Assembly: GCA_964405335.1 (NCBI GenBank)
Contig: CAYONP010000009.1
Span: 12,074 to 76,073, forward strand
Length of the DNA: 64,000 bases
Direction: 5' to 3'
Source: an uncultured Fimbriimonadaceae bacterium
Lineage (GTDB): Bacteria > Armatimonadota > UBA10988
In this document: positions 1,521 through 41,202 of the stretch, in pieces
How positions within the stretch are numbered: position 1 is the stretch's first letter
Layout of the letters: every line of letters begins with the position of its first letter
Notes under the pieces: model-generated
Databases searched by the model: none
The model's input: the letters and a program-made list of their open reading frames with translations, nothing else
Told to the model about the DNA's origin: nothing
Translations under genes and position numbers: made by a program

Positions 1521-1828
1521 TGGCAGTCGGCCGGGTAGCGGTGATTCAGCGGCCCGAGACGCCCGAGCAGCGCAAGCTGTGGGAGCAGTGCTGCGCGGTC
1601 GAGGGCATGTTTCTGCAGCAGATGCTGACCGCCATGCGGCGGACGGCGCCCGACCAGGACGGCCTGTTCGGCGGCGGCGTGGGCCTGAAGATGACCCGCG
1701 ACATGATGGATGAGCAGCTTGCCGAGGTGCTGGCCAAGCGCGGCTCGGCCGGCGTGGCGGGGTTGCTCTACCGCGGCCTGGTGCCGGGCGGGGCGGGCCC
1801 GCCGGCGGGAGACGGCGATGCGGATTGA
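1520..1828 (+). CDS. Rod-binding protein (FlgJ N-terminal domain only, no muramidase domain)
   Basis: ATG at 1520 overlaps the flgI stop (ATGA). 102 aa: MAVGRVAVIQRPETPEQRKLWEQCCAVEGMFLQQMLTAMRRTAPDQDGLFGGG..., typical Rod_binding/FlgJ N-domain. Lies inside the longer spurious ORF 230..1828 (same frame). Confidence 0.7.
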   Translation: MAVGRVAVIQRPETPEQRKLWEQCCAVEGMFLQQMLTAMRRTAPDQDGLFGGGVGLKMTRDMMDEQLAEVLAKRGSAGVAGLLYRGLVPGGAGPPAGDGDAD

Positions 1829-2252: not shown

Positions 2253-2561
2253 GTGAACGGCGAGCGTGTCGAGGCTCTGACCATGTTGGTCGACCTGCTC
2301 GGGGAGCAGCGCCGGGCGATCCTGGCGCGTGACCCCGATGCGCTGGTCAACACCCTGCGGGGCGTGGCCGGCGCCAGCGCCAAGGTGACGCAGTGCCTCG
2401 ACACGCCGCCCTGCCCGCGTGAGCGCGCTCTGCTGGCGGTCATGCGGCGCCTCAACGAGGGCAACCGCCGGCTGCTCGAACTGACCGTGCAGCCGCTCCA
2501 CGAATTGGCCGACCTGGCCCACCGCCACGGCGTCGCCGCGGCGATTGACCAGGTCGCCTGA
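2253..2561 (+). CDS. flgN: Putative FlgN-like flagellar export chaperone
   Basis: 102-aa helical protein (GTG start) immediately between flgM and flgK, the canonical FlgN position; weak sequence resemblance (LLGEQRRAILARDPDAL). Confidence 0.45.
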   Translation: MNGERVEALTMLVDLLGEQRRAILARDPDALVNTLRGVAGASAKVTQCLDTPPCPRERALLAVMRRLNEGNRRLLELTVQPLHELADLAHRHGVAAAIDQVA

Positions 2562-4825: not shown

Positions 4826-5965
4826 ATGGGATGGGAGCCGTTGAAGCCATCGCCCTCCCCGCGCGAGCTGGCCGACCTGATCACCACCGAGCTGGGCCGC
4901 TGTCGCGAGCTGTTGCTCCGCGACGCGGCCGGCCGCCGGCAGCGCCTGTTCGGCCACCTGGTCGGCGCCGGGCGCGCCGTGCTCGAGACCACCGCCGCGC
5001 ACGGCGAGCCGGTCACCCTGACCGCCGCCTGGCTGGTGGTCCACGCCGTGGTCACCCACAACTCCGGCCGGGCCGACCTGGCCGCGCCGCTGGGCCGCCG
5101 GCTGCGCGAGCTGGTGCCCCTGCCCGACGAGCTGGCCGACTATCACCGCGATGAGGTGACCCGGACCTTTGCCGCCTGCCAGCTCGGCCGGGCCGCGATG
5201 ATCCTGCCCTCGCCGCTGGCCGCCGCCGACGGCACCTGGCTCAAGCTCCTGGCCGACCAGCTCAACAGCGCCCTGTGCGACCTGCCGCCAGACCTCTGGC
5301 GCGACCTGGCGCTGTCCGCCCTCCGCCCGCCCCGGCCGCACGGCGGGCTGCTCCTCGTCATCCCGCCCGACGGCGGCGAGCCGTGGGACCTGATGGCCGC
5401 CACGCCACCCGGCGCCGGCGTGATCGACGCCCGCGCCGAGCGACTCACCGAGGCCGAGCTGCTGGCCGAGGTCCACCGCCTGGCGCCTGAACAGGTGGCG
5501 ATCGACCTGCGCCGCGGCGGCGACAGCCTGGCCGACGCCATTGCCGCCCTCGTGCCGTCGGCACGGCTGATTGCCCTCGGCCGCGAGACAGCAGAGCCGC
5601 CGTTTGCCGCGGCGCTCGCCGGCCCGCCGTTCGGCGCCCTGGCCGGCTTGGCCCAACGCAGCGGCGCCGTCCCGCCACTGCCCTACCCCGCCCTGGGCGA
5701 CCTGCGCTCCTGGCCCTTGTCCTGCTATGACGGCGAGGTGATCGTCCCCGTCCGCGGGCGCGGCGGAGCGCAGCTCGCCTGTGACCTGCAAGCCGCCCAC
5801 GCCGCGGCGCCGCCGGCCCGGCTGCGTCTGGCCGCCGGCGCAAGCGATGAGCAGTTGGACGAGCTGGCCGCCGCGATGCCGCTCCCGGCGCCGGTGCAAT
5901 GGTCGACCGTCGACCCGCCGTCGGGCGACCGGGCCGCGCTGCGCCGCGCGGGGTGGAGCGCCTGA
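4826..5965 (+). CDS. Hypothetical protein (379 aa), last gene of the flgK-flgL transcription unit
   Basis: ATG 3 bp after the flgL stop, same strand; opposite-strand alternative (4820..5899) is Arg/Gly-rich frame noise. No recognisable domain. Confidence 0.4.
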   Translation: MGWEPLKPSPSPRELADLITTELGRCRELLLRDAAGRRQRLFGHLVGAGRAVLETTAAHGEPVTLTAAWLVVHAVVTHNSGRADLAAPLGRRLRELVPLPDELADYHRDEVTRTFAACQLGRAAMILPSPLAAADGTWLKLLADQLNSALCDLPPDLWRDLALSALRPPRPHGGLLLVIPPDGGEPWDLMAATPPGAGVIDARAERLTEAELLAEVHRLAPEQVAIDLRRGGDSLADAIAALVPSARLIALGRETAEPPFAAALAGPPFGALAGLAQRSGAVPPLPYPALGDLRSWPLSCYDGEVIVPVRGRGGAQLACDLQAAHAAAPPARLRLAAGASDEQLDELAAAMPLPAPVQWSTVDPPSGDRAALRRAGWSA

Positions 5966-7973: not shown

Positions 7974-9287
7974 TTACGAGCCCGGCGTGAGGATGACCAG
8001 CTCGCTGGTGCCGTCGCCCGCGTATCCGGTGGCGACGATCCAGCCGGCCGAGTTGATGGAGCTAAGCCCGAGCGACGCCCACGCATCGCCGCCGCTCAAG
8101 ACGTCCTCAACGAACGTGATGCTGACGCTCTGAGGATCGCCCCAGTCCGTCGCCTCGGCGACGAAGTTGCCGTCCCACGCGCTCGTTCCGACGCCATACT
8201 TTCCGAGCATCTTGCCGTCGCTGCTCACCGACCAGACCAGCGACTGGCCGAGGGCGACGCCACGAGCGGCCTCGATCACGGCGTGAAGGTCCAGCGGCGT
8301 CTCGTCGTCGAGCCGATTGTCGCCGTCGCTGTCGCTCCACACCGCCGCGCGCGGTGGCACGAGGTAACCGTAGATCCGATAGACCTGACCGCCCGCGACC
8401 AGCGCGCCGCCACCAAGGACGTCGGTCAGGCCAGCCAACCGGACCTCGGTGCGGTCGCCGACTCCGGGGATGGTCTGAACCACTCCGGTGCCGGTGTTCG
8501 GCGTGTTCGGTACGAAGAGCGACGAACGATAGCACTGCATACCGTAGTCGTTGACCGGAACCACGTACGCACGAAACGCCTCGATCCCGGTGACCGACGC
8601 GGTGCTTCCGAGCCACAGCGCGGAGGATGCTCCAATGACCCCCGAGACCGTGCCGCTGGCGTTGATCCCCATGGCGGTGGAGTTGGTGGGCGACAGGTCG
8701 ACGCGGGAGCCCGACAACGGCCAGACCGTCGCGCGCTGCGTCGAGCTTGCGTGCGGCGCCGGGATCGTCGCCCACCCGACTGTCGTGCCGTCGGGTCGAA
8801 CGGCCGTGGCGACTGATCTGAAGGCCTGCTTCGGGACAGACAGGGCGACGAGCGTGCCAGGCCGGCCATCGATATCGTTGCCGCCCGTGTCGACGCGATC
8901 GAACGGCTCCCAGCGGCACGGCCGGCTATCGCTCGTGGAGGTCTCGAGATAGGCTGCGGCAAGGTAGCCGCCCGGCGCGCCACTCGCCGGATCGCTCAAG
9001 CAGTTCTGAGCTTCGCCGTGGTAGCCGCTGCCGTATGTCCGGTACCCGAGGTTGCCCAGGCCGGTCGCGGTGTAGCCCGAGCCGCTGGGCGGGATCCAGG
9101 CAACGGGCGTTCCACCACCGCCCCCGCCGCCGCCGCCGCCGCCGCCCGGCTTGGCGCGGTCGGCCGCCGCCGAGAGGTCGTCATCGACCAACTGGCCGCC
9201 GCCCCCGCCCCCGCAGCCGGCGACAACGAAGCAGAACGTCAGCACCAGGCCCGTCAGAGCGAGCCGGTTCAGGTCGTGTCGTCGCAT
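7974..9287 (-). CDS. HAF-repeat family lipoprotein (copy A)
   Basis: Start ATG at 9287 (in frame with track ORF 7974..9539); MRRHDLNRLALTGLVLTFCFVVAGC lipobox, poly-Gly linker, repeated A.GIN.SG.V.G HAF-type motifs (AMGINASGTVSGVIG, LSSINSAGWIVATGY). Confidence 0.75.
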   Translation of the reverse strand: MRRHDLNRLALTGLVLTFCFVVAGCGGGGGGQLVDDDLSAAADRAKPGGGGGGGGGGGGTPVAWIPPSGSGYTATGLGNLGYRTYGSGYHGEAQNCLSDPASGAPGGYLAAAYLETSTSDSRPCRWEPFDRVDTGGNDIDGRPGTLVALSVPKQAFRSVATAVRPDGTTVGWATIPAPHASSTQRATVWPLSGSRVDLSPTNSTAMGINASGTVSGVIGASSALWLGSTASVTGIEAFRAYVVPVNDYGMQCYRSSLFVPNTPNTGTGVVQTIPGVGDRTEVRLAGLTDVLGGGALVAGGQVYRIYGYLVPPRAAVWSDSDGDNRLDDETPLDLHAVIEAARGVALGQSLVWSVSSDGKMLGKYGVGTSAWDGNFVAEATDWGDPQSVSITFVEDVLSGGDAWASLGLSSINSAGWIVATGYAGDGTSELVILTPGS

Positions 9288-9390
9288 CGTCTTCTCCTTC
9301 GCCCACCGCGGCCACGTGGCCGCCGGCGCTAAATCGGATATGTAGCTCCGAACTCTGTGCGAAGTCTTTGCCGACGGTGCGAGGCAACGG
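9288..9390 (-). promoter_or_regulatory. Leader/promoter region of lipoprotein copy A; duplicated at 10789..10890
   Basis: About 100 bp about 90% identical to the region upstream of copy B. Contains a 14-bp perfect palindrome CGGCCACGTGGCCG (9309-9322), an AT-rich box (GGATATGTAG) unusual for this GC content and a GGGAGAAG Shine-Dalgarno-like motif before the ATG. Confidence 0.5.
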
Positions 9391-9505
9391 CGGCATCGCC
9401 ATGAGTCAGATGGCGCTTGTGGAAGCTCCGCATCAGCCTCGGCGTCGCCTCGTCCGAGACCTTCCACAGGCTCATCAACAGGCTCCTCACCCTCCCCCGG
9501 AGGCG

Positions 9506-9536
9506 CCCGCGACGGGTCGCTCCAACCCGTCGCGGG
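9506..9536. terminator. Hairpin (12-bp stem CCCGCGACGGGT / ACCCGTCGCGGG) downstream of lipoprotein copy B
   Basis: Directly 3' of the 9565 stop on the minus strand. Confidence 0.4.
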
Positions 9537-9564
9537 CACTGAGCGCCCCTGTCATGGGTGCTGG

Positions 9565-10788
9565 CTAGGCGCTCGGCTTCAGCAGGATGCTGACCTCCTG
9601 GCCGTCCTGGAGCGCCCAACACAGAATGGACCCATTGGCGTTGACCGCCACGGCGCGGGTCAGCGTGTAACTCGGGTCGTTGACCAGGTCTTGTAGCCGG
9701 CGCAGGCCGCTCGCCGCGTCCCACACGAAGGGGTCTCCCCACGGCGTGTTGTCCTCTACGAGGGAGCCGAGCGGCTTGGTGTCACCGACCACCACGTCCG
9801 TGCCCGCCACGACCGCGTAGCCGGTGGCGTCGCTGTGCCCTGCCCACGGGGTGGCGCCCTGATCCTCGTGCAGCGACTGGGTGGTCCAGACCAGGGTCGT
9901 CGGACCGTCCGCCCGCCACAGAGTGGCCCGGCCCGTGCCGCTGCCGGCGTCGATCAGCATTCCGGCCACGTCGCCCTGGTTGTTGATGGTGTGCCCGCCC
10001 TCGATGGTACCGTCGAGGACGGTCAGCTCGTGCCGCGTGTAGTCGGCGCCGGTGTAGGTCCGCGACGTCGTGCCGCTGTAGGTGGCGGCGAAGGTGCCCC
10101 AGCGCGAGCCGTTGCCCGCCAGGATCAGCCCGTTGGCCAGGTCCATGGGCCACAGGTTGTGGTCCCAGGACAGGTACTGGCCGTTGGCAAGGCGGACCCA
10201 GGAGCCATAGCGGGTGGTCTTGCCCGACTTGGCGTAGGCGCCGTCCCCGCTCATGTCGCCGTTGTCGTTGACGTGATAGAAGAAGTGGGTCCCGTTGAGG
10301 AGCTTCTCATCCCTCACGGGCTCCGCCACGAAGCCACGATCGCCTGCAGGCCAGAACACCGCCCGGTCCTGCCAGCCCGTCTTGGTCTTGGCCCACCCAA
10401 AGCCGGCCAGGTCACCCCGGCTGTTGACCGAGTGGGCGTAGGAGTCGCGCTGGATCCCGCTCACCGTACCCAGCGTCCGGGCGACACCGTTGGCGTCCCA
10501 GGCCACAGCCTGGGGCGTGTCGGTGGCATCGGACGACCACCCACACGGGAGATCGTCCCCGTTGCTCACCGCCAGGTCCATGCCTGCGTGGCGCGCTCCA
10601 GCCACCAGCGGCTGCAGCGGCACGACTTGATAGGCGCTCGCCGCCGCCCGGCTTGCCGCCGGGCCCAGCCCCAGCAGGTCGCCACCGGCAGCCAACGTGC
10701 CGCCCCCGCCCCCGCAGCCCGCGACAACGAGGCAGAACGTCAGCACCAGGCCCGTCAGGGCGAGCCTGCTGAGATCGAGTCGTCGCAT
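9565..10788 (-). CDS. HAF-repeat family lipoprotein (copy B, paralog of 7974..9287)
   Basis: Start ATG at 10788; MRRLDLSRLALTGLVLTFCLVVAGC lipobox nearly identical to copy A; HAF-like repeats (AHSVNSRGDLAGFGW, YHVNDNGDMSGDGAY, GHTINNQGDVAGML, AVAVNANGSILCWA). Confidence 0.75.
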   Translation of the reverse strand: MRRLDLSRLALTGLVLTFCLVVAGCGGGGGTLAAGGDLLGLGPAASRAAASAYQVVPLQPLVAGARHAGMDLAVSNGDDLPCGWSSDATDTPQAVAWDANGVARTLGTVSGIQRDSYAHSVNSRGDLAGFGWAKTKTGWQDRAVFWPAGDRGFVAEPVRDEKLLNGTHFFYHVNDNGDMSGDGAYAKSGKTTRYGSWVRLANGQYLSWDHNLWPMDLANGLILAGNGSRWGTFAATYSGTTSRTYTGADYTRHELTVLDGTIEGGHTINNQGDVAGMLIDAGSGTGRATLWRADGPTTLVWTTQSLHEDQGATPWAGHSDATGYAVVAGTDVVVGDTKPLGSLVEDNTPWGDPFVWDAASGLRRLQDLVNDPSYTLTRAVAVNANGSILCWALQDGQEVSILLKPSA

Positions 10789-10890
10789 CGTCTTCTCCCT
10801 CGCCCGCCGCGGCCGCGCGGCCGCCGGCGCTAAATCGGATATATAGGTCCGAACTCTGTGCGAAGTCTTTGCCGACGGTGCGAGGCGACG
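10789..10890 (-). promoter_or_regulatory. Leader/promoter region of lipoprotein copy B (duplicate of 9288..9390)
   Basis: Palindrome here is CGGCCGCGCGGCCG (10810-10823): a different sequence from copy A but again a perfect 14-bp palindrome (compensatory change). Same AT-rich box GGATATATAG. Confidence 0.5.
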
Positions 10891-10931
10891 GTCGAACCGA
10901 ACCGGATCGGCCGACCAGGTTGGAGTTAGGA

Positions 10932-13900
10932 TCAGCCTGCAAGCCCGCGGAGGAGGCAGAGTGCTCGCTCGCCGGCCTGGCGGATGGTCCACCCGCGACC
11001 CTGTTCGGACGCGGCTTCGAACGCCTGCTCACCGAGCGTCTCACGCCATTGCGACAACGGCCCGGTGAGCTGCACGTCATGGACCTCGAGGGCCGGCGCG
11101 ACATTGGCGATGCGGTAGGCAGCGGCCGCAGACACGAGCCGGACCGCGTCGGCGGATGCGAGTGCCGGTATCAGGCTGACCCCCTCGATCGTGGCCAGCA
11201 CTCCGAGCTCGAGGTCGTGGCCCAGGGCGCGTTCGAGCACCTTGGCGTAGGCATCCACCGCGGCTGCCGGCCGGCCGCGCTCGCGTTCCAGATGCGCCAG
11301 GGCGACGTCGAGATAGGCCACCTGAAGGGGCTCGCCGGCCAGGTCCATCGCATCTCGTGCCTGGCGGAAGTACCACTCGGCCGGGCCGTAGTCGCCACGG
11401 CGTTGAGCGATCGCCGCCAAGCCGGCTTGATCGCTCGCTATCCGGTATGGCTGCTGGAGGACCTCGGCCAGCGACAAGGCCTGCCGATAGCCCGCCTCGG
11501 CGGCCGGTAGGTCGCCCTGGTGGAAAGCGATGCAGGCGACCATGCGAACGACGTGCTCCTCGAGTACGGGATCGCCTTCGCGCCGTGTGGCCGGCACGGC
11601 CTGAGCGAAGATCCGGCTCGCGGCTTCGAGGTTCTGGCTGCGGCGCAGCCAGTGCGCGATCATCACCAGCGACCAGACCGACGACCGGTCGTCCGCGCTC
11701 CGGCCGAGCTGGTCGAGGGCCTCGGCCTCCAGGTCGTCGGCCTCGGCCAGGCGCCCCTCGAGGCGCGCCAGCGTGCTCAGGCCGAACAGGGCGGTGGCCG
11801 CGGCGTTGCGATCCCCGAGCTCGCGAGCCAGGCCCAGATTCTGTTGCAGCCGGTCGGCGTCGGGCAGGCCCGGCATGGGACCGCCCGGTTGGTGGTCGCG
11901 CGCGAGCTGCAAACCGGCCATGTGCGTCAGCGCCTTCATCTGCTCGTGCCGGTCGCCGGCTTCGGCCCACAGCAGCAGGCTCTGTTCGGCCAGTTGGTAC
12001 GCCTCCAGCAGACGACCCTCAATGGTCGCCGCCACGTAGAGTCGTCCCAGGAAGGCGGCCAGCCGCCGCCGGTCCAATACCTGCTCGGCCGACTTCTGCG
12101 CGAGATGCCAGTGCCGGGCCGCTTCGGCGGCATCCTGATCGGCCGGCGGCAACAGCACCAGCAGATAGTGGGCCATGGCCTCGGCGGCGTGGTCACCCGC
12201 AGCAGTCCCGGCCCGCAGGGCCTCGGCGGCCCAGGTGGCGGCCTGGTCGTGACGGCCCAGCCGAAAGGCCAGCAGGCCGGCCGCCAGGGCCGCGGTCGCC
12301 CGAGCGGCAGTCAGCGTCTGGGCGCCCGGTGCGGCGAGCACAGCCTCCAGTTGTTCCAGGCCCTGGCTCCATCTGGCCTGCTGGTTCCAAAGCGCTCCGA
12401 GGGTGGCGGCCAATCGCAGGCCGTCGTCGGCCTGCTCCGCCCGCGACAGCGCTTCATCCAGGGCCATCTGAAGGTTGGCCTGCTCCTCGGCCAGTCGGCT
12501 AAGCCACACCGCCTCGTCGATCGGCCTGCCCGGCGCACCGTCGCCCAGCGCGGCGGCGAAGCAGGCGACCATCCGCGCCGACGCTCTCGGTCGCTCGCCG
12601 CGCTCGACCAACCGCTCAGCCGCGAACTCGCGGATCGTCTCGAACATCCGGTACCGCGGCTCGTCGCCCGTCAGGTCGAGCTGGAGCAGCGACCAGCCGC
12701 GGAGTAGCTCGAGGTAGTCTCTGGCCGAGGGCTCCTCGCCCACCGCTTCGGCGGCCTCGGCGCCGAAACTGCCGGCGAAGACGGACAGCCGCGCGAGGAA
12801 GGCCTGGAACGGCTCCGACAGCAGTTGGTAGCTCCAGGCGATGGCGGCTTCGAGCGTGCGGTGGCGTTCGGGCCGCCGGTCCGATCGCGCGGCCCGCCAG
12901 TGCAGCCGTTCGTCGAGCCGCTCGGCGAGGCGATGGACGCTCATCGACGGCAGGCGCGCAACCGCCAGCTCGAGCGCCAAGGGGATCCCCTCGAGGCCGG
13001 TGCAGACCGCGACTACCGCCGCCGCATTGCGTTCGCTCAAGACGAAATCAGGCACGGTGGCGCGGGCCCGATCGACGAACAGTTGCACACTCGGAACGCC
13101 GGCCACGGCGGCGATGTCGGCGCGCTCGCTCGGCAGGTCCAGCGGCTCGACCGGCACGGGTCGTTCGCCGGACAGGCCCAGTCTGCGCCGCGAGGTGGCC
13201 AGGCAGAGCAGCGACGGGCAGTCCTCGAGCAGCTTGCCGATGACCAGACCGGCCTCGGGCGTGAACTGCTCGAGGTTGTCCAGGATCAGCAGGCCGGGAT
13301 GCTCGCCAAAGAACCAGCGAAGCTGCTGATCCACGTGGCTCTGGGGTTCCAGGCCGATCCGGCGCAGAATCTCAAAGGTGAGGTCGGCCGCCGTTCGCAG
13401 GTCGGAAGCCTGAACGAACCAGGCCAGAGTGCCGCAGGTCCGCGCCATGTGCCAGCCGACCTCGACCGCCAGCCGTGTCTTGCCGCTGCCGCCCGGGCCG
13501 GTGAGGGTCACCAGGCGCGTGTCGTCGAGCAGCAACTCGGTCACCGCCGCGATCGCCGCCTCACGGCCATACGTTCGGCCCAGCACCGCGGGCAGCGCGG
13601 CGGTCACCGGCCGCTCCAGCGCCAATGGCTGCCCCACCGCGGCGCTGTCGGTGGCGAAGATCCCACAAGCCGCCGCTCCAGACCGGAGCCGGTACTCGCC
13701 CAGGCTAACCAGGCTCAAGTGCCGGCGGGCGCCCTGGCGCAGCAAGGCGGCGGTGGCCTCGGTCACGAGCAGTTGCCCATCCACCGCGGCGCGACGCAGT
13801 TGCTCGACCGATTCGGCTGCGGGACCGTCGAGCCGGAGGCTGACGTCAGCGGTATGGACGGCCAGCGCGAACTCGTTGTCGCGGACCCGCTCAGCGAAGG

Positions 13901-14891
13901 CGAACGCGTCGCCGGCGCGAGCAAAGGCGACCACGATGCCGTCGTCGTCGCGACGCGCCGGCACGGCACCGAATCGTTCGGCCTCGTCGGCAAGGCAGGC
14001 TGGCGCCGCGACGAAGGTCACGGTGCCGGTCAGGTCCGGATCACCGGCGGGCCGAAGGTCGAGCACCGCCAGGTCTTGGCGGGCCTTGTCGGGCTCGCCC
14101 AGCAGGGCCAGCAGCTCGGTGTCGGGTTCCCAGTCGCCGGTTCGGCGGCGCCTGGCGACGAACCCGTCGAGATGCCGACGAGCCGCCGCGCGGTCGTCCA
14201 CGGCCAGCTCGAGCTGCACGAGTCGACGGAGCAGTGGTTCGCAATCCGGCTCGGCCGAGTTGCCCAGGCGGGCCACCCGCAGGGCCTCGCCCGGCCGGCC
14301 GGCGGCGACATGCCACTCCACCAGCGCTTCCACTGCTTCGACGAAGCACTGCCGCAGCCGCGCCTCCTCGCTCAGCACCCACCGTTCGTAGCAGCAGGGC
14401 AGCAGCGGACCGCCATAGACCGACACGACCTGCTCGAATCGCGCTTGGCGCAACTCGTCGGTCGCCCGACCTGCCGCCTGGTAAGCCGCATCGAGCTGCT
14501 GCACGTCGGTCTCGAGCAGCTCATCCCGAACCCAGACCGACCGCCGGTCGGCTAGGACAAGCGTCTCCTTAGCCTGCTCCGGAGGGCAGAGCTGGCGGCG
14601 CAGGACGGATAGAGTGTAGCTCAGTCTGCCGCGCCCGCTGTCGGCTCCGCAACCGGGCCAGAGCAGCTCGATCAGCTCGTCACGTTCGTGCCGGCGGTGC
14701 GGGTGGTAGGTCAGGTAGGCGAGCAGTGAGGCCGCCTTCTGCGTGCGGAAGCGACAGAGCGTGCCGCCGGCATGCCGAACCTCGAGGGAGCCGAGCAGCC
14801 GTACCTGGTAGCCAACCACCTGACCGACCTTCCCCGACGGCGGACCTGCTCGCCCTGCGGAACAGAAGCGATGTGTACACCAGTGTGTCAA
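10932..14891 (-). CDS. SARP/AfsR-like transcriptional regulator: OmpR-type winged-helix DBD + BTAD + cyclase-like segment + NB-ARC P-loop ATPase + TPR repeats
   Basis: N-terminal YQVRLLGSLEVRHAGG...LLAYLTYHPHRRHERDELIELLWPG (SARP DNA-binding), Walker A LTGPGGSGKTRLAVEV, long C-terminal TPR-like helical repeats. True start may be an internal GTG near VGQVVGYQV. Confidence 0.8.
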   Translation of the reverse strand: MTHWCTHRFCSAGRAGPPSGKVGQVVGYQVRLLGSLEVRHAGGTLCRFRTQKAASLLAYLTYHPHRRHERDELIELLWPGCGADSGRGRLSYTLSVLRRQLCPPEQAKETLVLADRRSVWVRDELLETDVQQLDAAYQAAGRATDELRQARFEQVVSVYGGPLLPCCYERWVLSEEARLRQCFVEAVEALVEWHVAAGRPGEALRVARLGNSAEPDCEPLLRRLVQLELAVDDRAAARRHLDGFVARRRRTGDWEPDTELLALLGEPDKARQDLAVLDLRPAGDPDLTGTVTFVAAPACLADEAERFGAVPARRDDDGIVVAFARAGDAFAFAERVRDNEFALAVHTADVSLRLDGPAAESVEQLRRAAVDGQLLVTEATAALLRQGARRHLSLVSLGEYRLRSGAAACGIFATDSAAVGQPLALERPVTAALPAVLGRTYGREAAIAAVTELLLDDTRLVTLTGPGGSGKTRLAVEVGWHMARTCGTLAWFVQASDLRTAADLTFEILRRIGLEPQSHVDQQLRWFFGEHPGLLILDNLEQFTPEAGLVIGKLLEDCPSLLCLATSRRRLGLSGERPVPVEPLDLPSERADIAAVAGVPSVQLFVDRARATVPDFVLSERNAAAVVAVCTGLEGIPLALELAVARLPSMSVHRLAERLDERLHWRAARSDRRPERHRTLEAAIAWSYQLLSEPFQAFLARLSVFAGSFGAEAAEAVGEEPSARDYLELLRGWSLLQLDLTGDEPRYRMFETIREFAAERLVERGERPRASARMVACFAAALGDGAPGRPIDEAVWLSRLAEEQANLQMALDEALSRAEQADDGLRLAATLGALWNQQARWSQGLEQLEAVLAAPGAQTLTAARATAALAAGLLAFRLGRHDQAATWAAEALRAGTAAGDHAAEAMAHYLLVLLPPADQDAAEAARHWHLAQKSAEQVLDRRRLAAFLGRLYVAATIEGRLLEAYQLAEQSLLLWAEAGDRHEQMKALTHMAGLQLARDHQPGGPMPGLPDADRLQQNLGLARELGDRNAAATALFGLSTLARLEGRLAEADDLEAEALDQLGRSADDRSSVWSLVMIAHWLRRSQNLEAASRIFAQAVPATRREGDPVLEEHVVRMVACIAFHQGDLPAAEAGYRQALSLAEVLQQPYRIASDQAGLAAIAQRRGDYGPAEWYFRQARDAMDLAGEPLQVAYLDVALAHLERERGRPAAAVDAYAKVLERALGHDLELGVLATIEGVSLIPALASADAVRLVSAAAAYRIANVAPALEVHDVQLTGPLSQWRETLGEQAFEAASEQGRGWTIRQAGERALCLLRGLAG

Positions 14892-22769: not shown

Positions 22770-23531
22770 TCAGGCCGCGCGGGCCAGCAAGCCCATCGCC
22801 CGGTGGACCTGCAGCCGCTCGGCCACCAAGCGCGGGTGCAGGCGTTGCTGCAGCAGCACCAGGCCATCGATCCAAAGCTCCCGCTCGGCCGCGCGCAGGC
22901 GCAGCGCCCGCCGGCGGAGCAGCATCTGCGGCGCGCAGACCAACTGCGCCAGCGCCACGCCATAGCCGGTGGCCAGCAGCGCGCCGGCCAACGCCGGCGC
23001 CATCGCCTCGGGCGGGCCCAGCAGCGACTGCACCATGCCGGCCAGGGTCAGAATCACCCCGCCGTTGACCGCGCCCTCGGCCAGCCGCTGCCAGCCCTCG
23101 GTCGGCTGGCGGTCGAGCGCCTCGAGCTCGGCCGCGGCCTGGCGCAGCGCCGCCTCCAACGCCGTCGGCTCGACCTCGGCGCTGAGCAACCGAAGCGCCA
23201 GCCCTTCGAGTAGACCGCCCGCGGCACTGGACTGCTGGGCGAGCCAGCGCTCGCCGTGGCTCCGGTAGCCGCGCGACAACTCGATCAGGCGGGCCGCGGC
23301 GGCCTCGATATCGGCCTCGGCCGGGCGGTCGAAGATGCGCCGTACCGCTGACAGGGGCTGGCAGCAGAACAGGTATCCGACCGCCGACAGCACCACCGCC
23401 GCCAGCGCCACGGGATGCCACAGTCCGGCCGGCCGGCCGGCCAGTCCGGAGCCGACCGCGAGAGCCGCTACCGCGATGAGGTAACCCGCCGCGGTGAGCG
23501 ATCGCTGCAGAGCTCGCGTTGGTCTTGGCAT
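22770..23531 (-). CDS. motA: MotA/PomA-like stator proton-channel protein
   Basis: Start ATG at 23531 (in frame with track ORF 22770..23684). Four TM segments; TM3/TM4 region GGVILTLAGMVQSLLGPPEAMAPALAGALLATGYGVALAQLVCAP with the conserved prolines of the MotA/ExbB/TolQ family. Confidence 0.65.
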   Translation of the reverse strand: MPRPTRALQRSLTAAGYLIAVAALAVGSGLAGRPAGLWHPVALAAVVLSAVGYLFCCQPLSAVRRIFDRPAEADIEAAAARLIELSRGYRSHGERWLAQQSSAAGGLLEGLALRLLSAEVEPTALEAALRQAAAELEALDRQPTEGWQRLAEGAVNGGVILTLAGMVQSLLGPPEAMAPALAGALLATGYGVALAQLVCAPQMLLRRRALRLRAAERELWIDGLVLLQQRLHPRLVAERLQVHRAMGLLARAA

Positions 23532-23535
23532 CGAT

Positions 23536-24513
23536 CTAGATCTCGTCGCGTTCGGCCCGAAACTTAGCCCGGCAGAGCATGACCAGCAGGTAGCCGGCGA
23601 CCATCGCCTCGAGCGGCCGGCGCACCGGCAGCGCCGGCGGCCGGCCCGCGCCGCCGGGGGCGTCGGCCCGGATGAGCAGCCCACGCGGCCGCCACTCGCG
23701 CACGCCGCGCACCGCGTCGAGTCGTGGCTTCAGGCGGTCGGCCTCGCGCGCCAGGTGGTCGACCAGCCGCTCGAGCGACCGCGCCTGAGGTTCGCCGTCA
23801 TCGCCGCCGACCTCATACAGCAACGCCACCGCACGGTGCCGCGCGGCGAAGTAGCGGTGGCACAGGCTGGTCGCATAGCCGGCCGGGGTGCGGGTCAGGC
23901 GGATCGGCTGACCGACCCGCTGCTCGCCGGCGACGATGCCGCGGGCCAGCGACTCGGCCAGGCCGTCGAGCGCCCGGTCGCCGGTCGGGTACCACTCGAT
24001 CCAGTCCGCCTCGCGCGGGCCGGCGCGGCGCATGCCGAACTGGTGCAGGTCGATCACGAGGTGCGGCTGCCAGGCGTCGAAAACCCGCATCACCGCCCGG
24101 TTCTCGGCTTGATCGCGAAGCAGCCACGAGCGGTTGAGGTCGACTCCGCGGCTGTTGGCCCGCCGCCCACGCGCGGCGCCGTCAGGGTTGACCGTGGGCA
24201 TCAGCAGCACCGCGACGCGGTCGAACGGCGCGTTGCGGCCGGCGGCGCTCTCCATCCAGCGCACCGCGGCGCGTGCCGGCGCCGGCTCGTCACCATGCTG
24301 CTGGGCCAGGACCAGCACTCGGATCTGCTCCTCGGGCGCACCCGGCCGCATGGTCGCAATCAGCAGCGGGAGGTCACGTCCCTCGGTGCTGGTGCCCGCC
24401 GACTGCGCAAACAGGTGTGGCGCCGCGGCCGACCAACGCGCGACGGCGGCGGCCACGTCGGCCGGCGCGCCGGCGACGGGCAGGGACAGCAGGCCGGCAA
24501 GCAGCCACCTCAC
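23536..24513 (-). CDS. Secreted M14-family zinc carboxypeptidase-like protein (peptidoglycan peptidase type)
   Basis: Signal peptide MRWLLAGLLSLPVAGAPA; zinc-binding QHGDEPA (HxxE), VNPDGAARG, LNRSW, VIDLHQFG (second His). Sits between flbD and motA, where motB is normally found. Confidence 0.7.
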   Translation of the reverse strand: MRWLLAGLLSLPVAGAPADVAAAVARWSAAAPHLFAQSAGTSTEGRDLPLLIATMRPGAPEEQIRVLVLAQQHGDEPAPARAAVRWMESAAGRNAPFDRVAVLLMPTVNPDGAARGRRANSRGVDLNRSWLLRDQAENRAVMRVFDAWQPHLVIDLHQFGMRRAGPREADWIEWYPTGDRALDGLAESLARGIVAGEQRVGQPIRLTRTPAGYATSLCHRYFAARHRAVALLYEVGGDDGEPQARSLERLVDHLAREADRLKPRLDAVRGVREWRPRGLLIRADAPGGAGRPPALPVRRPLEAMVAGYLLVMLCRAKFRAERDEI

Positions 24514-26482: not shown

Positions 26483-26884
26483 CTACTCGACCGCTTCGAG
26501 CGAGCTGAACAGCAAGCTCTGCTGACCCAACCGCAGCACCGCGCCCTGGTCGCTGGAGACCACCGAGTCGACCACCCCGCTGACCGCCGTGCCGTCGGGC
26601 GCCGTGCCCGAGACCGTGCGGCCGATCAGGCTGACCGCCTCGGTGAACTGGCTGCCGGTGACCAACTGTGCCAACTGCTGGTTGATCTCGACCTGCTGCT
26701 GCATGCTGCTCATCGAGGCGAGCTGGTTCATGAACGCCTGCTGGTCCATGCCACTGAGCGGATCCTGGAACCGCAACTGGGCCACCAGCAGGTTGAGGAA
26801 GGCCTCCGAATCGAGCGACTGCTTCGGCACGCGCGCCGCGCCGAGCGAGGGATCGTACGTCACTCCCGAAATGGCCGACGGCAT
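26483..26884 (-). CDS. flgD: Flagellar hook capping/assembly protein FlgD
   Basis: 133 aa, LDSEAFLNLLVAQLRFQDPLSGMDQQAFMNQLASMSSM. Confidence 0.85.
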   Translation of the reverse strand: MPSAISGVTYDPSLGAARVPKQSLDSEAFLNLLVAQLRFQDPLSGMDQQAFMNQLASMSSMQQQVEINQQLAQLVTGSQFTEAVSLIGRTVSGTAPDGTAVSGVVDSVVSSDQGAVLRLGQQSLLFSSLEAVE

Positions 26885-26897
26885 CGCATCCTCCTTT

Positions 26898-28517
26898 CTA
26901 CGCCCAGAGCAGCAAGCCGTCGTCGGGCGACGACCGCTGCATGGTCGGGCCGACCGGCTCGAGCGGCGTCGGCTCCGCCGGCGCCTCGCGCTGCGGCCGG
27001 CCGCCCGGCCAGCTATCCGGCCAGGGCGATTGCTGCCCGCCGCGAGCGCCGACGTCGAGGCTTTCCAGCGCCAGGCCGTGCCCGCCCAGCGCTTCGCGTA
27101 GCGCCGGCAACTGCTCCTGCAGCTCGCGCCGCAGGCCCTCGTGCTGCGTGCCGACCAGCACCTGCACCGTGTCGGCCGTGCGCACCACCCGCACCGCCAC
27201 CTCGCCCGCCTCGGGGTGCTGCAGCGAAACGGTGAAGCTGTCCTGGCCCGGCGAGCGGACCAGCCTCGCTCGGTCGACGATCAGCTCGCGCAGCGAGCCG
27301 ACGTCGTGCATCGCGATCGGCCGGGACGGCTCGCCGCCCTCGGTCGCCGCGGCGGTGCCCAGGCTGAACGTCGCCGGCGCCGCCTCGGGCCGCGGCTCGG
27401 CCGGCCGCACCGGTGCGGTCGGCGGCTCGTGCCGCTCGCCGCCCTGTTGCGCCGAACCCTCCGGCGTCGGCGCCTCGACCGGCCGGGCCGCCGGTGCGTC
27501 GGCCGGGGTGAGCACCTGCGCCGGCCGCTCGCGCGGCGCGGCCGGTTCGAGCGGTGGCGCGGCGCGCAGCGGATCGACCGCCTCGCGGCGCGAAACCGGC
27601 GGTGCCGGCTCGGCCGGCGGCTCGATCACCGTTTCGGCCGTCTCGCGCAGCGTCGTGGTCAGGGTCTCGACCAACGCGTCGGGATCGAGCGGCGGCAGTG
27701 GCCCGAGCGGCTCGACAGCCTGCGTGCCGCGCACGGTCACGCCGCCGTTGGCGGCCGCCTGGGCCGGTGAGATCGGCGGCGGCGGGCTGGGCTCGGGCAG
27801 CGGTGGAAGCTGGGGCTCCGTCACGTCCGGCTCGTGGCGCAGCGCGGCGGCGAACTGGGCCGCCCGCTCGGTCACCTTCGGCACATAGGCCTGGGTCTCG
27901 GCGAACGGCGGCACGCCGCCATGCTGCTCGACGGCGCCGGGCCCGGCGTTGTAGGCGGCGACCGCGCGGCGCACGTCGCCGCCGAAGCGGTCGAGCATCT
28001 GGCGCAGGTAACGCGTGCCGGCGTCGATGTTCTGCGCCGGGTCGAAGGCGTTGCTGACGCCCAGCTCGGCCGCCGTGCCGGGCATTAGCTGCATCAAGCC
28101 CTGCGCCCCGGCGGGCGAGACGGCCTGCGGGTTGAAGCTCGATTCGCTCTGCATCACCGCCAGGATGAGCGCCTCATCGACGCCGTGGCGGCGGCCGGCC
28201 TCGCGGACCAGGCGCTGGGTTTCGGCCGGCACGTCGGCCAGCGCGCCGGCGCCGGTGAGCACCGCTCGCGCCAGGTCGGCCGCGGGCCGGTTGGCGCCGC
28301 TCGAGTCCTCGGGCAGCAAGGCGCGCAGGTCGGGCAGCGCCAGCTCGGCGCCGGCGGTCAGTCCGCCGGTGGCCAGGCGGGCCTGCAGGATTTGGTTGAA
28401 CGCCTCGGCCGGTGTCGTCGGCGGGGCGGTGGGGGCCACTTCCGGGGTCAGTCGGTCCAGCAGCCCTTCGATCTGCCTCAGTCGGCCGACCAGGCCGCTG
28501 AGGTGCTCCAAGTTCAT
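26898..28517 (-). CDS. Fusion protein: lytic transglycosylase (SLT) domain + FliK hook-length control C-terminal domain
   Basis: 539 aa single ORF. SLT motifs [32 protein letters not shown]...AYNAGPGAV; Pro/Ala-rich linker; C-terminal Flg_hook-type domain [64 protein letters not shown]. Located at the fliK position (fliJ-X-flgD). Confidence 0.8.
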
Positions 28518-28894
28518 GGGTCACTCCCCTTTCGGGAGTAGCTGATCACAGCCCTTTCGTCGTTCTCGGCCTGTTCGTACCACTCCAGTCGGGCGAGGTG
28601 CTCGCGCCGGCGCTGCTCGCGCAACCGCTCGAGGCTCCGGCGATCGCGCCGCGCGGCCAAATAGTCGGCCTGCCGGCGCTCGACCTCACGTTCTGTTTCG
28701 GCCAGCTCGGCGGCCTGCTTTAGCTCGAGCAGCTCCAGCCGACGCAGCTCGCGCCAGGCGGCGGCGATCAGCTCGCTGTCGAGCTCGGCCAGCTCGCGCC
28801 GCAGGCGCTCCAGCTCGGCGCGCAGCCGCGCCTGGGTGGCGCGCAGGGCCGCCTCGGCCGCGTCGCGCAGCGCAATCGCCTCGGCCAAGGCCAA
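28514..28894 (-). CDS. fliJ: Flagellar export protein FliJ (N-terminus probably extends upstream to about 28999 via a non-canonical start)
   Basis: Coiled-coil protein; the in-frame upstream sequence ...[34 protein letters not shown] is FliJ-like but contains no ATG/GTG before the in-frame stop at 29003-29005; the track start is a TTG. Confidence 0.6.
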
Positions 28895-38800: not shown

Positions 38801-40132
38801 ATGCGCCGATTTGCATGTCTGTTGTTCGCCGGCTGGCTGGGCCTGGCGCCCACCGGCGCGGCCGTGCCGAAGCTCAGCTACAACCCGTCGCACGGCGAGA
38901 TGCTGCGCTTTCTGGTCGAAGCGAACCGCGAGACCCGCTTCGTCACCACCGTCGCCGCCGCCGGGCGGTCGGTCCGCGGGCGGCAGATTCCGGTGGTCAT
39001 CTGCCAGGACCCGACGGTCGACCCGCTGAACATGACCCGGCTGCTGATCATGGCGCGGCAGCACGGCAACGAGCCGGCGGGGACGATTGCCCTGCTCGAG
39101 CTGATCCGCGACCTGGCCGCCGGGCAGGCCGGACCGCTCGAAATGCAACTTCAGCGCGTCTGCCTGTTGCTGGTGCCGATGGTCAACCCCGACGGCGCCG
39201 ACGCCAACACGCGCCGGAACGCCAACAACATCGACCTGAACCGGGACTGGAACAGCCGCACGCAGCCCGAATCGCAGGCGATGGAGTACCTCCACAACCT
39301 GTGGACTCCGCACGCCGTGCTCGATCTGCACGAGCTCTGGTTCAACGACGCGCACGGGATCAACACCATCGAGGCGCCCGGCGGTGGAGCGCGGGTGCCG
39401 GCCGAGGTCGCCGCCGAATGCCGGCGACTGCAGCAGTACATCCTCACCCGCCTGCAGCAGGCCGGGTTCCCCGTCCGCCCGAGTTTCTGGGACGGCGGCA
39501 ACGATGGCTCGCTGGCGCACCGCCACTTCTCACGCGACCACGGCCGCATGGCGCTGCTGTTCGAGAGTGAGCGTCAGGGCTTCCGCACGCCGCTGCCGCG
39601 CCGGGCGCAGATGCACCGCATCGGCGTGCAGACGGTGATCGACTATTACTACAGCGGAGGCTTCGGCCCGCGCGACAGCGAGGCGGCTCTGGTGCCCTCG
39701 CCCGGCGGCGGTGAAGCGCTGCCGCCGCCGTCGCTCGACGGGTCGCCGACGCCGCCCGGCGGGGCGAATGCGGCCGCCGCGCCGGCGCGGCCGCTCGGAC
39801 CCGAGCCCGAACCCACGCCGACTCGGCCGCAGATCCGGTTCATCACGCCCGAGGTGACGCAGGAGGTGCATGGGACGGTGATGCTCGAGCTCGCGCTCAG
39901 CGGCATCGACGACCTCGAAACGCTGTCGGTCTTTGTCGACGGGCAGGGCCGGTACTTCAGCAATCGGCCGCCGTTCCGGTTCGCCTGGGACACCAGCGAC
40001 CTATCGCCCGGCCGGCACGTGGTCCTGGTCCGCGCGCGGCGGCGCAGCGGCGAGACGGTCGAACGCGAGCAGCTCTTCAGCGTCGCCCGCGGCCGGCCCG
40101 ATACGGTGACCGAGAGCGACGAGGAAGAGTGA
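38801..40132 (+). CDS. Secreted M14-family zinc carboxypeptidase-like protein with C-terminal Ig-like domain (paralog of 23536..24513)
   Basis: Signal peptide; MARQHGNEPAG (HxxE), VNPDGADANTRRNANNIDLNRDWN, LDLHELW; C-terminal beta-rich domain. Confidence 0.75.
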   Translation: MRRFACLLFAGWLGLAPTGAAVPKLSYNPSHGEMLRFLVEANRETRFVTTVAAAGRSVRGRQIPVVICQDPTVDPLNMTRLLIMARQHGNEPAGTIALLELIRDLAAGQAGPLEMQLQRVCLLLVPMVNPDGADANTRRNANNIDLNRDWNSRTQPESQAMEYLHNLWTPHAVLDLHELWFNDAHGINTIEAPGGGARVPAEVAAECRRLQQYILTRLQQAGFPVRPSFWDGGNDGSLAHRHFSRDHGRMALLFESERQGFRTPLPRRAQMHRIGVQTVIDYYYSGGFGPRDSEAALVPSPGGGEALPPPSLDGSPTPPGGANAAAAPARPLGPEPEPTPTRPQIRFITPEVTQEVHGTVMLELALSGIDDLETLSVFVDGQGRYFSNRPPFRFAWDTSDLSPGRHVVLVRARRRSGETVEREQLFSVARGRPDTVTESDEEE

Positions 40133-41202
40133 ACCTCTGGGTCGAGGTCGACCCCACCGCGCTCGAGGCCAACGCCCGCGCCGTGACCGAGCTGCTCGGC
40201 AGCACGTCGCTCTGCGCCGTGGTCAAGGCCAACGGCTACGGCCACGGCGCCGTCATCGCCGCCCGCGCCTTCCTCGCCGCCGGCGCCGAGCGGCTGGCGG
40301 TGAGCAGCGTCGACGAGGCGGTCGAACTCCGCGCCGCCGGCCTCGACGGAACCATCCTGCTGCTCGCCTCGCACGCGCCGGACGAGGCCGAGGCGGTCGT
40401 CGAACACCGGCTGACCGCCACGATCAGCGAGCTCGGCGCGGCCGAGCGGCTCTCCCGCGCAGCGGGCGATCAGACGGTGCCGATTCACCTGCTGGTCGAC
40501 TGCGGCATGGGCCGCGACGGCTGCCTGCCCAGCGAGTCGCCGGCCCTCGCCGAGGCCGCCGCGGCGCTGCCGGGCCTCACGATCGAGGGCGTCTACACCC
40601 ACTTCCCGACCGCGCTGGCGCGCGACAAGTCGGCCACGCGCCGGCAACTGGGGCTGTTCCTGGAAACCGTTACCCGGCTCCCCACCAGGCCACCGCTGGT
40701 CCATGCGGCCAACTCGGCGGCGGCGGTCGACCTGCCCGAGTCGCGGCTCGACCTCGCCCGCATCGGGACGCTGCTCTATGGCCAGTACCCGAGCCGCTGG
40801 GTGACCCGCGCCGTCGAGCTGCGCTCCGCCTGGCGGCTGTGCGCCCGGCTGGTCGAGGTGCGGACCCTGCCGGCCGGGGCGAGCATCGGCTACGGCAGCG
40901 AGCACCGCCTGCGCCGCGCGACGCGGGTCGGCACGCTGCCGGTCGGTTGGGCTCACGGTTTCACGTTGCAGCCGGCCAGCCTCCACCGCGGCCTGCGCGG
41001 CCTGGCCCACGCGCTACGGCCCGAGCCGGCGGCGGTGACGCTGCACGGTCGGCGCTGCCCGGTGCTCGGCCGCGTGGCGATGCAGAGCTGCGCGGTCGAC
41101 CTGACGGCCGCGCCGGAGGCGCAGGTGGGCGACGTCGCCGAGGTCCCGGCGCGGCGGGTGACGGTGCCGCCGAACGTGGCGCGGGTGGAGGTCAGGTCGT
41201 GA
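40129..41202 (+). CDS. alr: Alanine racemase
   Basis: PLP-lysine motif AVVKANGYGHGAV near the N-terminus, 357 aa; GTG start overlapping the upstream stop. Confidence 0.85.
   Translation: MNLWVEVDPTALEANARAVTELLGSTSLCAVVKANGYGHGAVIAARAFLAAGAERLAVSSVDEAVELRAAGLDGTILLLASHAPDEAEAVVEHRLTATISELGAAERLSRAAGDQTVPIHLLVDCGMGRDGCLPSESPALAEAAAALPGLTIEGVYTHFPTALARDKSATRRQLGLFLETVTRLPTRPPLVHAANSAAAVDLPESRLDLARIGTLLYGQYPSRWVTRAVELRSAWRLCARLVEVRTLPAGASIGYGSEHRLRRATRVGTLPVGWAHGFTLQPASLHRGLRGLAHALRPEPAAVTLHGRRCPVLGRVAMQSCAVDLTAAPEAQVGDVAEVPARRVTVPPNVARVEVRS

Follow-up and report, generated by a model that had tools for sequence, protein, structure and literature searches.

The passage of the flagellar rod through the cell wall is settled only where FlgJ carries its own hydrolase; in bacteria with a single-domain FlgJ and in the thick-walled Actinomycetota, the enzyme and its targeting are known in few species. 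SltF of Rhodobacter, PleA of Caulobacter and BB0259 of Borrelia are free GH23/SLT enzymes that serve rod passage where FlgJ is single-domain, and SltF is exported by the Sec pathway and recruited by FlgJ. In the two-domain FlgJ of Salmonella, a rod cap with a glucosaminidase, and in FlgJ-SLT fusions, a hydrolase is joined to an early flagellar protein that is exported by the type III apparatus, so that the enzyme arrives at the growing rod (PMC13584718). Here we describe a gene in which an SLT lytic transglycosylase domain is joined to the C-terminal domain of the hook-length ruler FliK. The gene is found in a stretch of 64,000 nucleotides, hereafter called the window, from an uncultured Fimbriimonadaceae bacterium of the phylum Armatimonadota (assembly GCA_964405335.1, contig CAYONP010000009.1, positions 12,074 to 76,073 of the forward strand).

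The encoded protein shares a C-terminal T3S4 domain (recognized by both profile and fold), a disordered linker and an N-terminal FxxxΦ motif with the FliK of E. coli and Salmonella and with the YscP/PscP rulers. With E. coli FliK it further shares an aromatic residue followed by Ala at the end of the tail, and a gene placed after fliJ with an ATGA overlap. It differs from all these rulers in that a complete lytic transglycosylase domain takes the place of the usual N-terminal region of FliK. The logic is the same as in two-domain FlgJ, but the carrier is the ruler and not the rod cap, and the Rod-binding domain resides on a separate protein. SltF, PleA and BB0259 are stand-alone enzymes, whereas here the SLT domain is fused to FliK, the protein scores far below the cut-off of the BB0259 model and no Sec signal is found. 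The housekeeping Slt and Mlt enzymes likewise differ from the fusion protein, as they carry the Sec or lipoprotein signal that it does not have.

Two further systems are related in layout. In the flagellar operon of Actinosynnema pretiosum, a gene named nlpC, encoding an SLT-NlpC/P60 protein, is followed by a separate fliK (PMC9019756). Such actinobacterial gene pairs resemble the fusion in the leader, the SLT domain and the place right after a fliJ-like gene, but they consist of two genes and their enzyme includes an NlpC/P60 endopeptidase, whereas the fusion is one gene with a Peptidase_M14 gene in its operon instead. Phage tape-measure proteins are length rulers that travel through a tube with an SLT domain to breach peptidoglycan, as we propose for the fusion protein. 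We regard this likeness as an analogy of design and not as shared ancestry of the ruler part. The gene has no phage surroundings, and its ruler module is the T3S4 domain of FliK.

One gene encodes an SLT domain and a FliK switch domain

The gene lies on the minus strand of the window (26898..28517) and encodes 539 residues plus a stop codon, with an ATG start, a Shine-Dalgarno-like sequence (AAGGGGAG) upstream of the start, and the terminal stop as its sole stop. We note that the G+C content of the window is ~70%, and accidental long open reading frames (ORFs) are hence abundant. In this ORF, the in-frame G+C content at third codon positions (GC3) is 0.88-0.96 across all 50-codon blocks from start to end. 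This uniformity argues against a frame change between the SLT and FliK parts, and full-length homologues contain the same two domains.

Both domains score above their Pfam cut-offs. SLT (PF01464) spans residues 103-201 (E=2.2e-33, 114.7 bits, cut-off 21.3), and Flg_hook (PF02120) spans residues 421-497 (E=8.6e-12, 45.2 bits, cut-off 29.8). Neither the Rod-binding domain PF10135, which resides on the separate ORF 1520..1828 of 102 residues, nor the NlpC/P60 domain PF00877 has a Pfam match in the fusion protein, and the SLT domain is followed by the FliK linker and T3S4 domain instead. An AlphaFold2 model of the full-length protein, built on an alignment of 15 sequences, contains two confident folded modules: the SLT module at residues ~90-230, with a predicted local distance difference test score (pLDDT) above 95, and the C-domain at residues ~400-492, with a pLDDT of 75-90. 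The rest of the protein is disordered.

Taken together, these data divide the protein into five parts. The N-terminal leader (residues 1-95, 28233..28517, minus strand as all parts of this gene) contains no Sec-type hydrophobic stretch and is modelled with low confidence except for helices at residues 3-23 and 36-49. How these helices lie with respect to the groove of the SLT domain is predicted with too little confidence to be interpreted. The SLT domain, a GH23 family-1 lytic transglycosylase domain by Pfam, AlphaFold2 and Foldseek, covers residues 96-231 (27825..28232). It is followed by a linker rich in Pro and Ala (residues 232-400, 27318..27824), which is the presumed ruler segment. Its composition (P 23%, A 17%, E 11%) and its pLDDT, mostly below 50, indicate disorder, with one short helix at residues 279-294. 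The linker length is very variable among homologues, whose total length ranges from 493 to 1030 residues. The FliK C-terminal Flg_hook/T3S4 substrate-switching domain covers residues 401-495 (27033..27317). The last part is a disordered C-terminal tail (residues 496-539 and the stop codon, 26898..27032, pLDDT below 50), which ends in LLLWA. A terminal Trp or Phe followed by Ala is kept in the Armatimonadota homologues (LTVWA, LAVWA, MTFWA and LAEWA), and the C-terminus of E. coli FliK is VDIFA. The fusion is thus confirmed as one gene with an intact SLT domain and a FliK C-domain, connected by a disordered linker.

The SLT module has the features of an active enzyme. In a Foldseek search with the full-length model, only matches to the SLT module were returned, including Slt70, Pseudomonas aeruginosa Slt and MltC. 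By sequence, the best match of the domain in the PDB is the phage tape-measure protein gp41 (entry 9b45, E=5e-18), and MltC is again among the matches. All 15 aligned sequences keep the E-S, GLMQ and AYNAG motifs, with E125, S126, Q143, Y189, N190, A191 and G192 unchanged throughout. Glu125, located in the E-S motif (QSESSFNP; codon at 28143..28145), is the predicted catalytic acid, based on homology to the Slt70-type enzymes. The best named match is the NCBIfam model BB0259_flg_lyt (NF047373), with 93.6 bits against a cut-off of 234; the match covers profile positions 550-685 of 705, which is the SLT part only.

The identity of the C-domain is supported by sequence and fold. In BLASTP it aligns to residues 255-315 of E. 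coli FliK (E=3e-5). When modelled alone (AlphaFold2, pLDDT 84), its best full-domain matches are the PscP switch domain (5cuk) and FliK-C (2rrl), with template-modelling (TM) scores of 0.61 and 0.63, respectively. The Foldseek E-values of the C-domain are marginal (2e-3 and 1e-2), and we therefore base the assignment of the FliK-C fold on the full-domain TM score of ~0.6 together with the Pfam match. No recognizable FliK N-domain is present in the fused proteins, in which the SLT domain is the sole folded module before the linker.

The setting of the gene is that of fliK. Immediately upstream is fliJ (28514..28894, minus strand, Pfam FliJ E=4e-7), which overlaps the fusion gene by a 4-base-pair ATGA consistent with translational coupling; the same overlap recurs in two related loci (L002 and L003) and in E. 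coli fliJ-fliK. Directly downstream is flgD, encoding the hook cap (26483..26884, minus strand; Pfam FlgD and FlgD_tudor, NCBIfam FlgD). The full order of the minus-strand operon is fliJ, the fusion gene, flgD, the TIGR02530 gene 'flg_new', flgE, flbD, a Peptidase_M14 gene, a weakly MotA-like gene, fliL, fliN, fliP and further genes to flhB. A second flagellar cluster on the plus strand contains flgH, flgI, flgJ, flgM, flgK and flgL, and its FlgJ (1520..1828, plus strand, 102 residues) has a Rod-binding domain (Pfam E=7e-13) and no hydrolase domain. The presence of FlgH and FlgI, the proteins of the L and P rings, indicates that the organism is a diderm. Among ~45 ORFs of the window scanned with Pfam, no second SLT or Flg_hook domain was found. 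The genes fliF-fliI and flgB-flgG are located beyond the window.

An initial annotation, made by reading the sequence of the window alone, had claimed a single ORF of 539 residues with an SLT domain, a Pro/Ala-rich linker and a FliK C-domain at the fliK position. This claim holds in every part: the frame is uninterrupted, both profile searches that the annotation had suggested give scores above the cut-offs, the linker has the described composition, and the gene stands between fliJ and the downstream flgD, flg_new and flgE. The same annotation had described FlgJ as a bare rod-binding domain, which agrees with the Rod-binding domain being its only Pfam match.

The fusion is shared by several bacterial clades

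We searched for proteins that contain both Pfam domains and found ~35 sequence clusters at 90% identity, in Armatimonadota, in marine Acidimicrobiales and in a third clade. In a search of 5.8 billion proteins, nine further two-domain proteins were among the top matches. One of the homologues, MCC7491359.1 from a Fimbriimonadaceae metagenome-assembled genome (MAG), is named only 'transglycosylase SLT domain-containing protein'. Database names of other members are equally generic ('transglycosylase SLT domain-containing protein', 'hypothetical protein' or, for P0267 and the fragment P0279, 'FliK'). To place the fusion among FliK proteins, we used a profile of the C-domain. A word-indexed search with this profile gave three short fragments only, and an exhaustive HMMER search against 1.84 billion representatives was used instead, which gave 2844 FliK-like proteins. 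Among the best 150 of these 2844, judged by a purpose-built hidden Markov model of SLT, the SLT domain is present in the top clade only (P0001-4, P0007, P0008, P0011 and the 1030-residue P0130). Three very long matches (P0125, P0127 and P0131; 1638-5484 residues with many matched stretches) were set aside, as they look like low-complexity or wrong-frame sequences. A search from a distant fused protein (P0106) gave 26 more two-domain clusters, one of which is named as an Acidimicrobiales MAG. Proteins that combine a Rod-binding domain with an SLT domain were also found among the homologue matches (P0017, P0046 and P0062).

Gene order is conserved along with the fusion. Two long contigs, one from a Fimbriimonadaceae MAG (L002) and one from an Armatimonadota UBA10988 bin (L003), arrange their genes exactly as in the window, with the M14 peptidase gene at its place. 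The same two-domain protein stands between fliJ and flgD in three Acidimicrobiales-type loci (L005, L006 and L009) and in one locus of the third clade (L010). In these loci the order is flgB-flgC-fliE-fliF-fliG-fliH-fliI-fliJ-[SLT-FliK]-flgD-flgE-flbD-motA-motB-fliL, with the fusion gene in the fliK slot as in the window, L002 and L003. No second Flg_hook gene is found in them, the near-complete flagellar clusters of L009 and L010 included, just as none is found among the scanned ORFs of the window, and the fusion protein appears to be the FliK of organisms of the L009 and L010 type, as their near-complete gene sets hold no other Flg_hook gene.

The fused proteins are diverse. Within the Armatimonadota clade their identity is only 40-50%. 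By C-domain similarity they form three clades, and the Armatimonadota C-domain is nearer to unfused FliKs than to the fused ones of Acidimicrobiales, which suggests more than one fusion event.

Two cases depart from the intact architecture. In a further Armatimonadota-type contig (L004, GCA_029980365.1, 2480-5524), the SLT and Flg_hook domains are found on two ORFs. The linker of this locus contains two compensating frameshifts, flgE is split and fliP is missing. We attribute the split to an error-prone assembly or to a decaying flagellar locus, and we rejected its protein P0122 as an unfused relative because of the two linker frameshifts and the broken flgE in the same contig. In the other case, P0133 (330 residues, from the representative search), the leader (MIPEGLNRVLGRIVEIEAK...) is preserved along with the FliK C-domain, and only a remnant of the SLT domain (AFNAGPNGVQMHGSVPFYPKTQ) is left. 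P0133 is therefore a fused gene whose enzyme part was lost later.

The initial annotation had asked whether the two parts are fused in orthologous loci; they are fused in the six intact loci named above, and the seventh, L004, is split by frameshifts. It had also presented the architecture as undescribed, and our full-text literature searches aimed at it likewise found no description. The annotation needs refinement in that, with ~35 clusters in at least two phyla, the architecture is not unique. It is conserved and previously unreported in the searchable literature, and neither a singleton nor an artefact.

A likely origin from two adjacent genes

The unfused counterpart of the two parts is seen in the actinobacterial type of operon. 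In L007 the order is a FliJ-like gene, a gene for an SLT and NlpC/P60 protein of 342 residues, a gene for a FliK of 426 residues, and then genes for FlgD, Flagellar_put, FlgE, FlbD, MotA, MotB and FliL. SLT-NlpC/P60 proteins make up much of the match list of the window protein, with an identity of 57-69% in the SLT domain. The similarity extends beyond this domain, as the first ~40 residues of the SLT-NlpC/P60 proteins align with the leaders of the fused proteins (M..L..R[IV]..I[EQ]..., followed by a Pro-rich stretch and F...L). The homology of the leaders and the shared operon order suggest that the fusion arose when an SLT gene, leader included, was linked to the part of the adjacent fliK that encodes the linker and C-domain, with NlpC/P60 absent from the product. 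The leader of the fusion protein would then be derived from the SLT gene and not from FliK.

Export signals in the leader

The leader was compared with known export signals. No Sec-type hydrophobic segment is found in the first 70 residues of the window protein, where the maximal Kyte-Doolittle hydropathy over 12 residues is 0.94. The corresponding maximum is at most 1.6 in the fused and actinobacterial proteins, compared with 2.6-2.9 in the Sec-bearing SLT proteins P0006 and P0010. We also considered whether the leader holds a Sec or lipoprotein signal, or whether translation starts further downstream. As the leader is conserved from its first residue and contains no hydrophobic stretch, we rejected all three possibilities.

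Early flagellar substrates, FliK among them, begin with small hydrophobic residues at the very N-terminal end, and their second export signal is the FxxxΦ gate-recognition motif, located at least 30 residues into the protein (Bryant et al., PMC8983047). In the window protein, small hydrophobic residues are found at L3, L6, L9 and V10, and the sequence FNQIL at residues 40-44 (28386..28400) matches the FxxxΦ motif. All 15 aligned sequences, which represent three clades, have F40, and every fused or actinobacterial homologue that was aligned contains the FxxxΦ motif. In E. coli FliK, the corresponding sequence FLALL is located at approximately residue 29. The leader of the fusion protein thus fits the export signals of early flagellar type III substrates and may direct export by the same route. 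The initial annotation had suggested that the flagellar type III apparatus delivers the enzyme just when the rod must cross the wall; this idea is plausible and gains indirect support from the missing Sec signal and the conserved FxxxΦ motif.

Proposed function and alternative explanations

Based on these observations, we propose that the fusion protein is a bifunctional flagellar protein, exported by the type III apparatus, that acts both as wall cutter and as hook ruler, and that was formed by joining two neighbouring genes of an operon. We assign this model a probability of about 0.62. It would work as follows. FliJ, FlgD, FlgE and the fusion protein are products of a single operon, as the gene order and the ATGA coupling show. 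Its leader may dock at FlhB through the FxxxΦ motif, and the protein may leave through the flagellar type III channel with its N-terminus first, as a substrate of the early rod and hook class; we propose this route because no Sec signal is found. The SLT domain would emerge at the tip of the rod while the rod is still within the wall, refold, and cut glycan strands locally for the passage of the rod, supplying the hydrolase that the single-domain FlgJ is without. The linker and the T3S4 domain would function as in ordinary FliK, by homology, measuring the hook and flipping FlhB to late substrates. As FliK export ends at this specificity switch, the supply of the enzyme would be self-limiting.

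Several points weigh against this model. Export, its timing and the enzymatic activity are all deduced from sequence and homology, and the FxxxΦ motif consists of five residues that would gain their significance from conservation alone. In a diderm, FliK molecules exported after the outer membrane has been crossed would carry the enzyme to the medium, and wall cutting would be left to the molecules exported earlier, at the rod stage. The loss of most of the SLT domain in P0133 indicates that at least one lineage can do without the enzyme part. In Salmonella, the hydrolase activity of FlgJ is described as an aid to flagellum assembly that is not strictly required (PMC13584718). Moreover, the window covers 64 kb of the genome, and other lytic transglycosylases or a second FliK may be encoded elsewhere in the organism.

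The most serious alternative, though one we consider doubtful, is a near-neutral join of co-transcribed neighbours, in which the two halves leave through the type III apparatus and keep their old separate jobs, or are cut apart by proteolysis, with no new coupling between them. It would account for the unfused SLT-NlpC/P60 and fliK genes in other Actinomycetota, where the SLT gene already has a type-III-like leader. Easy, repeated fusion is also suggested by the C-domains of the three fused clades, which are less alike than the Armatimonadota clade is to unfused FliKs, and P0133 keeps the remainder of the protein after losing its SLT domain. However, the fusion has been stable across deep divergence (40-50% identity in the Armatimonadota clade, with lengths of 493-1030 residues), and in near-complete flagellar clusters it is the only FliK, which points to selection for keeping the two parts fused, or at least to the absence of a cost. 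A more elaborate form of the bifunctional model seems improbable to us. Here the ruler would keep the enzyme attached to the export gate during its passage, so that wall cutting is limited to a radius set by the linker at the rod tip. The same molecule would then signal completion to FlhB, coupling the breach of the wall to the specificity switch as a checkpoint, in a design like that of the phage tape measure.

The remaining explanations deny one of the two activities, or the fusion itself. The SLT domain might be a non-enzymatic, folded 'head' of the ruler that replaces the N-domain of FliK, for example as an anchor that binds peptidoglycan or the cap and slows the exit of the protein. As mentioned above, a FliK N-domain is not recognizable and the SLT domain is the sole folded module ahead of the linker, which would suit such a head; the invariance of the catalytic-site motifs, including Glu125, in 15 diverged sequences is unexpected for a purely structural role, and we consider this idea very unlikely. 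It is also highly improbable that the protein is not a ruler, with the T3S4 domain merely targeting the transglycosylase to FlhB and a separate FliK elsewhere measuring the hook. The limited view of the genome, with fliF-fliI and flgB-flgG outside the window, leaves room for such a gene, but the fusion gene occupies exactly the fliK slot of this operon type, L009 and L010 have near-whole flagellar gene sets without another Flg_hook gene, and the protein has kept both its long disordered linker and a C-terminal tail like that of FliK. That a missed stop or frameshift merged two genes is hardly credible. The separate ORFs of L004 are what such an artefact would predict, but the compensating frameshifts and the broken flgE place the error in the L004 assembly, GC3 is even throughout the window ORF, and the intact fusion is found on dozens of independent contigs from different projects.

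If the bifunctional model is true, rod passage would have a third solution beside FlgJ fusions and free enzymes recruited by FlgJ, namely a hydrolase carried in the secreted ruler, the supply of which would stop by itself at hook completion. The family would also provide a natural experiment on how rulers measure, since an unrelated folded enzyme stands where FliK usually has its N-terminal region, and linker length varies approximately threefold. The family should be easily testable, as the domains are small and look soluble, the candidate catalytic residue is easy to single out, and Salmonella already offers export assays for early substrates.

Neighbouring genes

The Peptidase_M14 gene of the operon (23536..24513, minus strand) encodes an MpaA/Csd4-like protein with a signal-peptide-like N-terminus and an HGDE zinc motif (Pfam M14 E=3e-11, partial match to NCBIfam MpaA). 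In each of the four Armatimonadota-type loci (the window, L002 15002-16027, L003 15267-16313 and L004 8194-9009), this gene separates flbD from the MotA-like gene. The actinomycete operons have no such gene, and their SLT protein carries NlpC/P60 instead. The M14 protein may be a partner cell-wall peptidase that cuts peptides for wall passage, and it may be linked to the fusion. A second Peptidase_M14 paralogue with a bacterial immunoglobulin (Ig) domain (38801..40132, plus strand) is located directly upstream of an alanine racemase gene (40129..41202) and is probably involved in cell-wall peptide turnover.

The MotA-like gene (window 22770..23684, minus strand; L002 16015-16725; L003 16344-17087) is not followed by a MotB gene (MotB_plug/OmpA). 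Its product has a weak MotA_ExbB match in the window and no Pfam match on record in the relatives, and a stator is not evident in the operon. In the plus-strand cluster, an ORF of 102 residues (2253..2561, plus strand) without a Pfam match occupies the usual place of flgN, and another ORF without a Pfam match (4826..5965, plus strand, 379 residues) is found after flgL. A STAND-type nucleoside triphosphatase of 1319 residues with AAA_16/NACHT domains and TPR repeats (10932..14891, minus strand) is encoded beside the flagellar region, next to two ORFs of 475-521 residues (7974..9539 and 9565..10992) that have no Pfam match.

Proteins combining SLT with Peptidase_M23 also appeared among the matches and were rejected as flagellar enzymes, as they lie in conjugative type IV secretion system (T4SS) clusters. 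One high-scoring example (L008, 6001-6972) is encoded among genes for a T4SS pilin, TrbL, TraC/TraG and a relaxase. Their location in conjugative clusters suggests that this SLT subtype has been recruited by several envelope-spanning machines.

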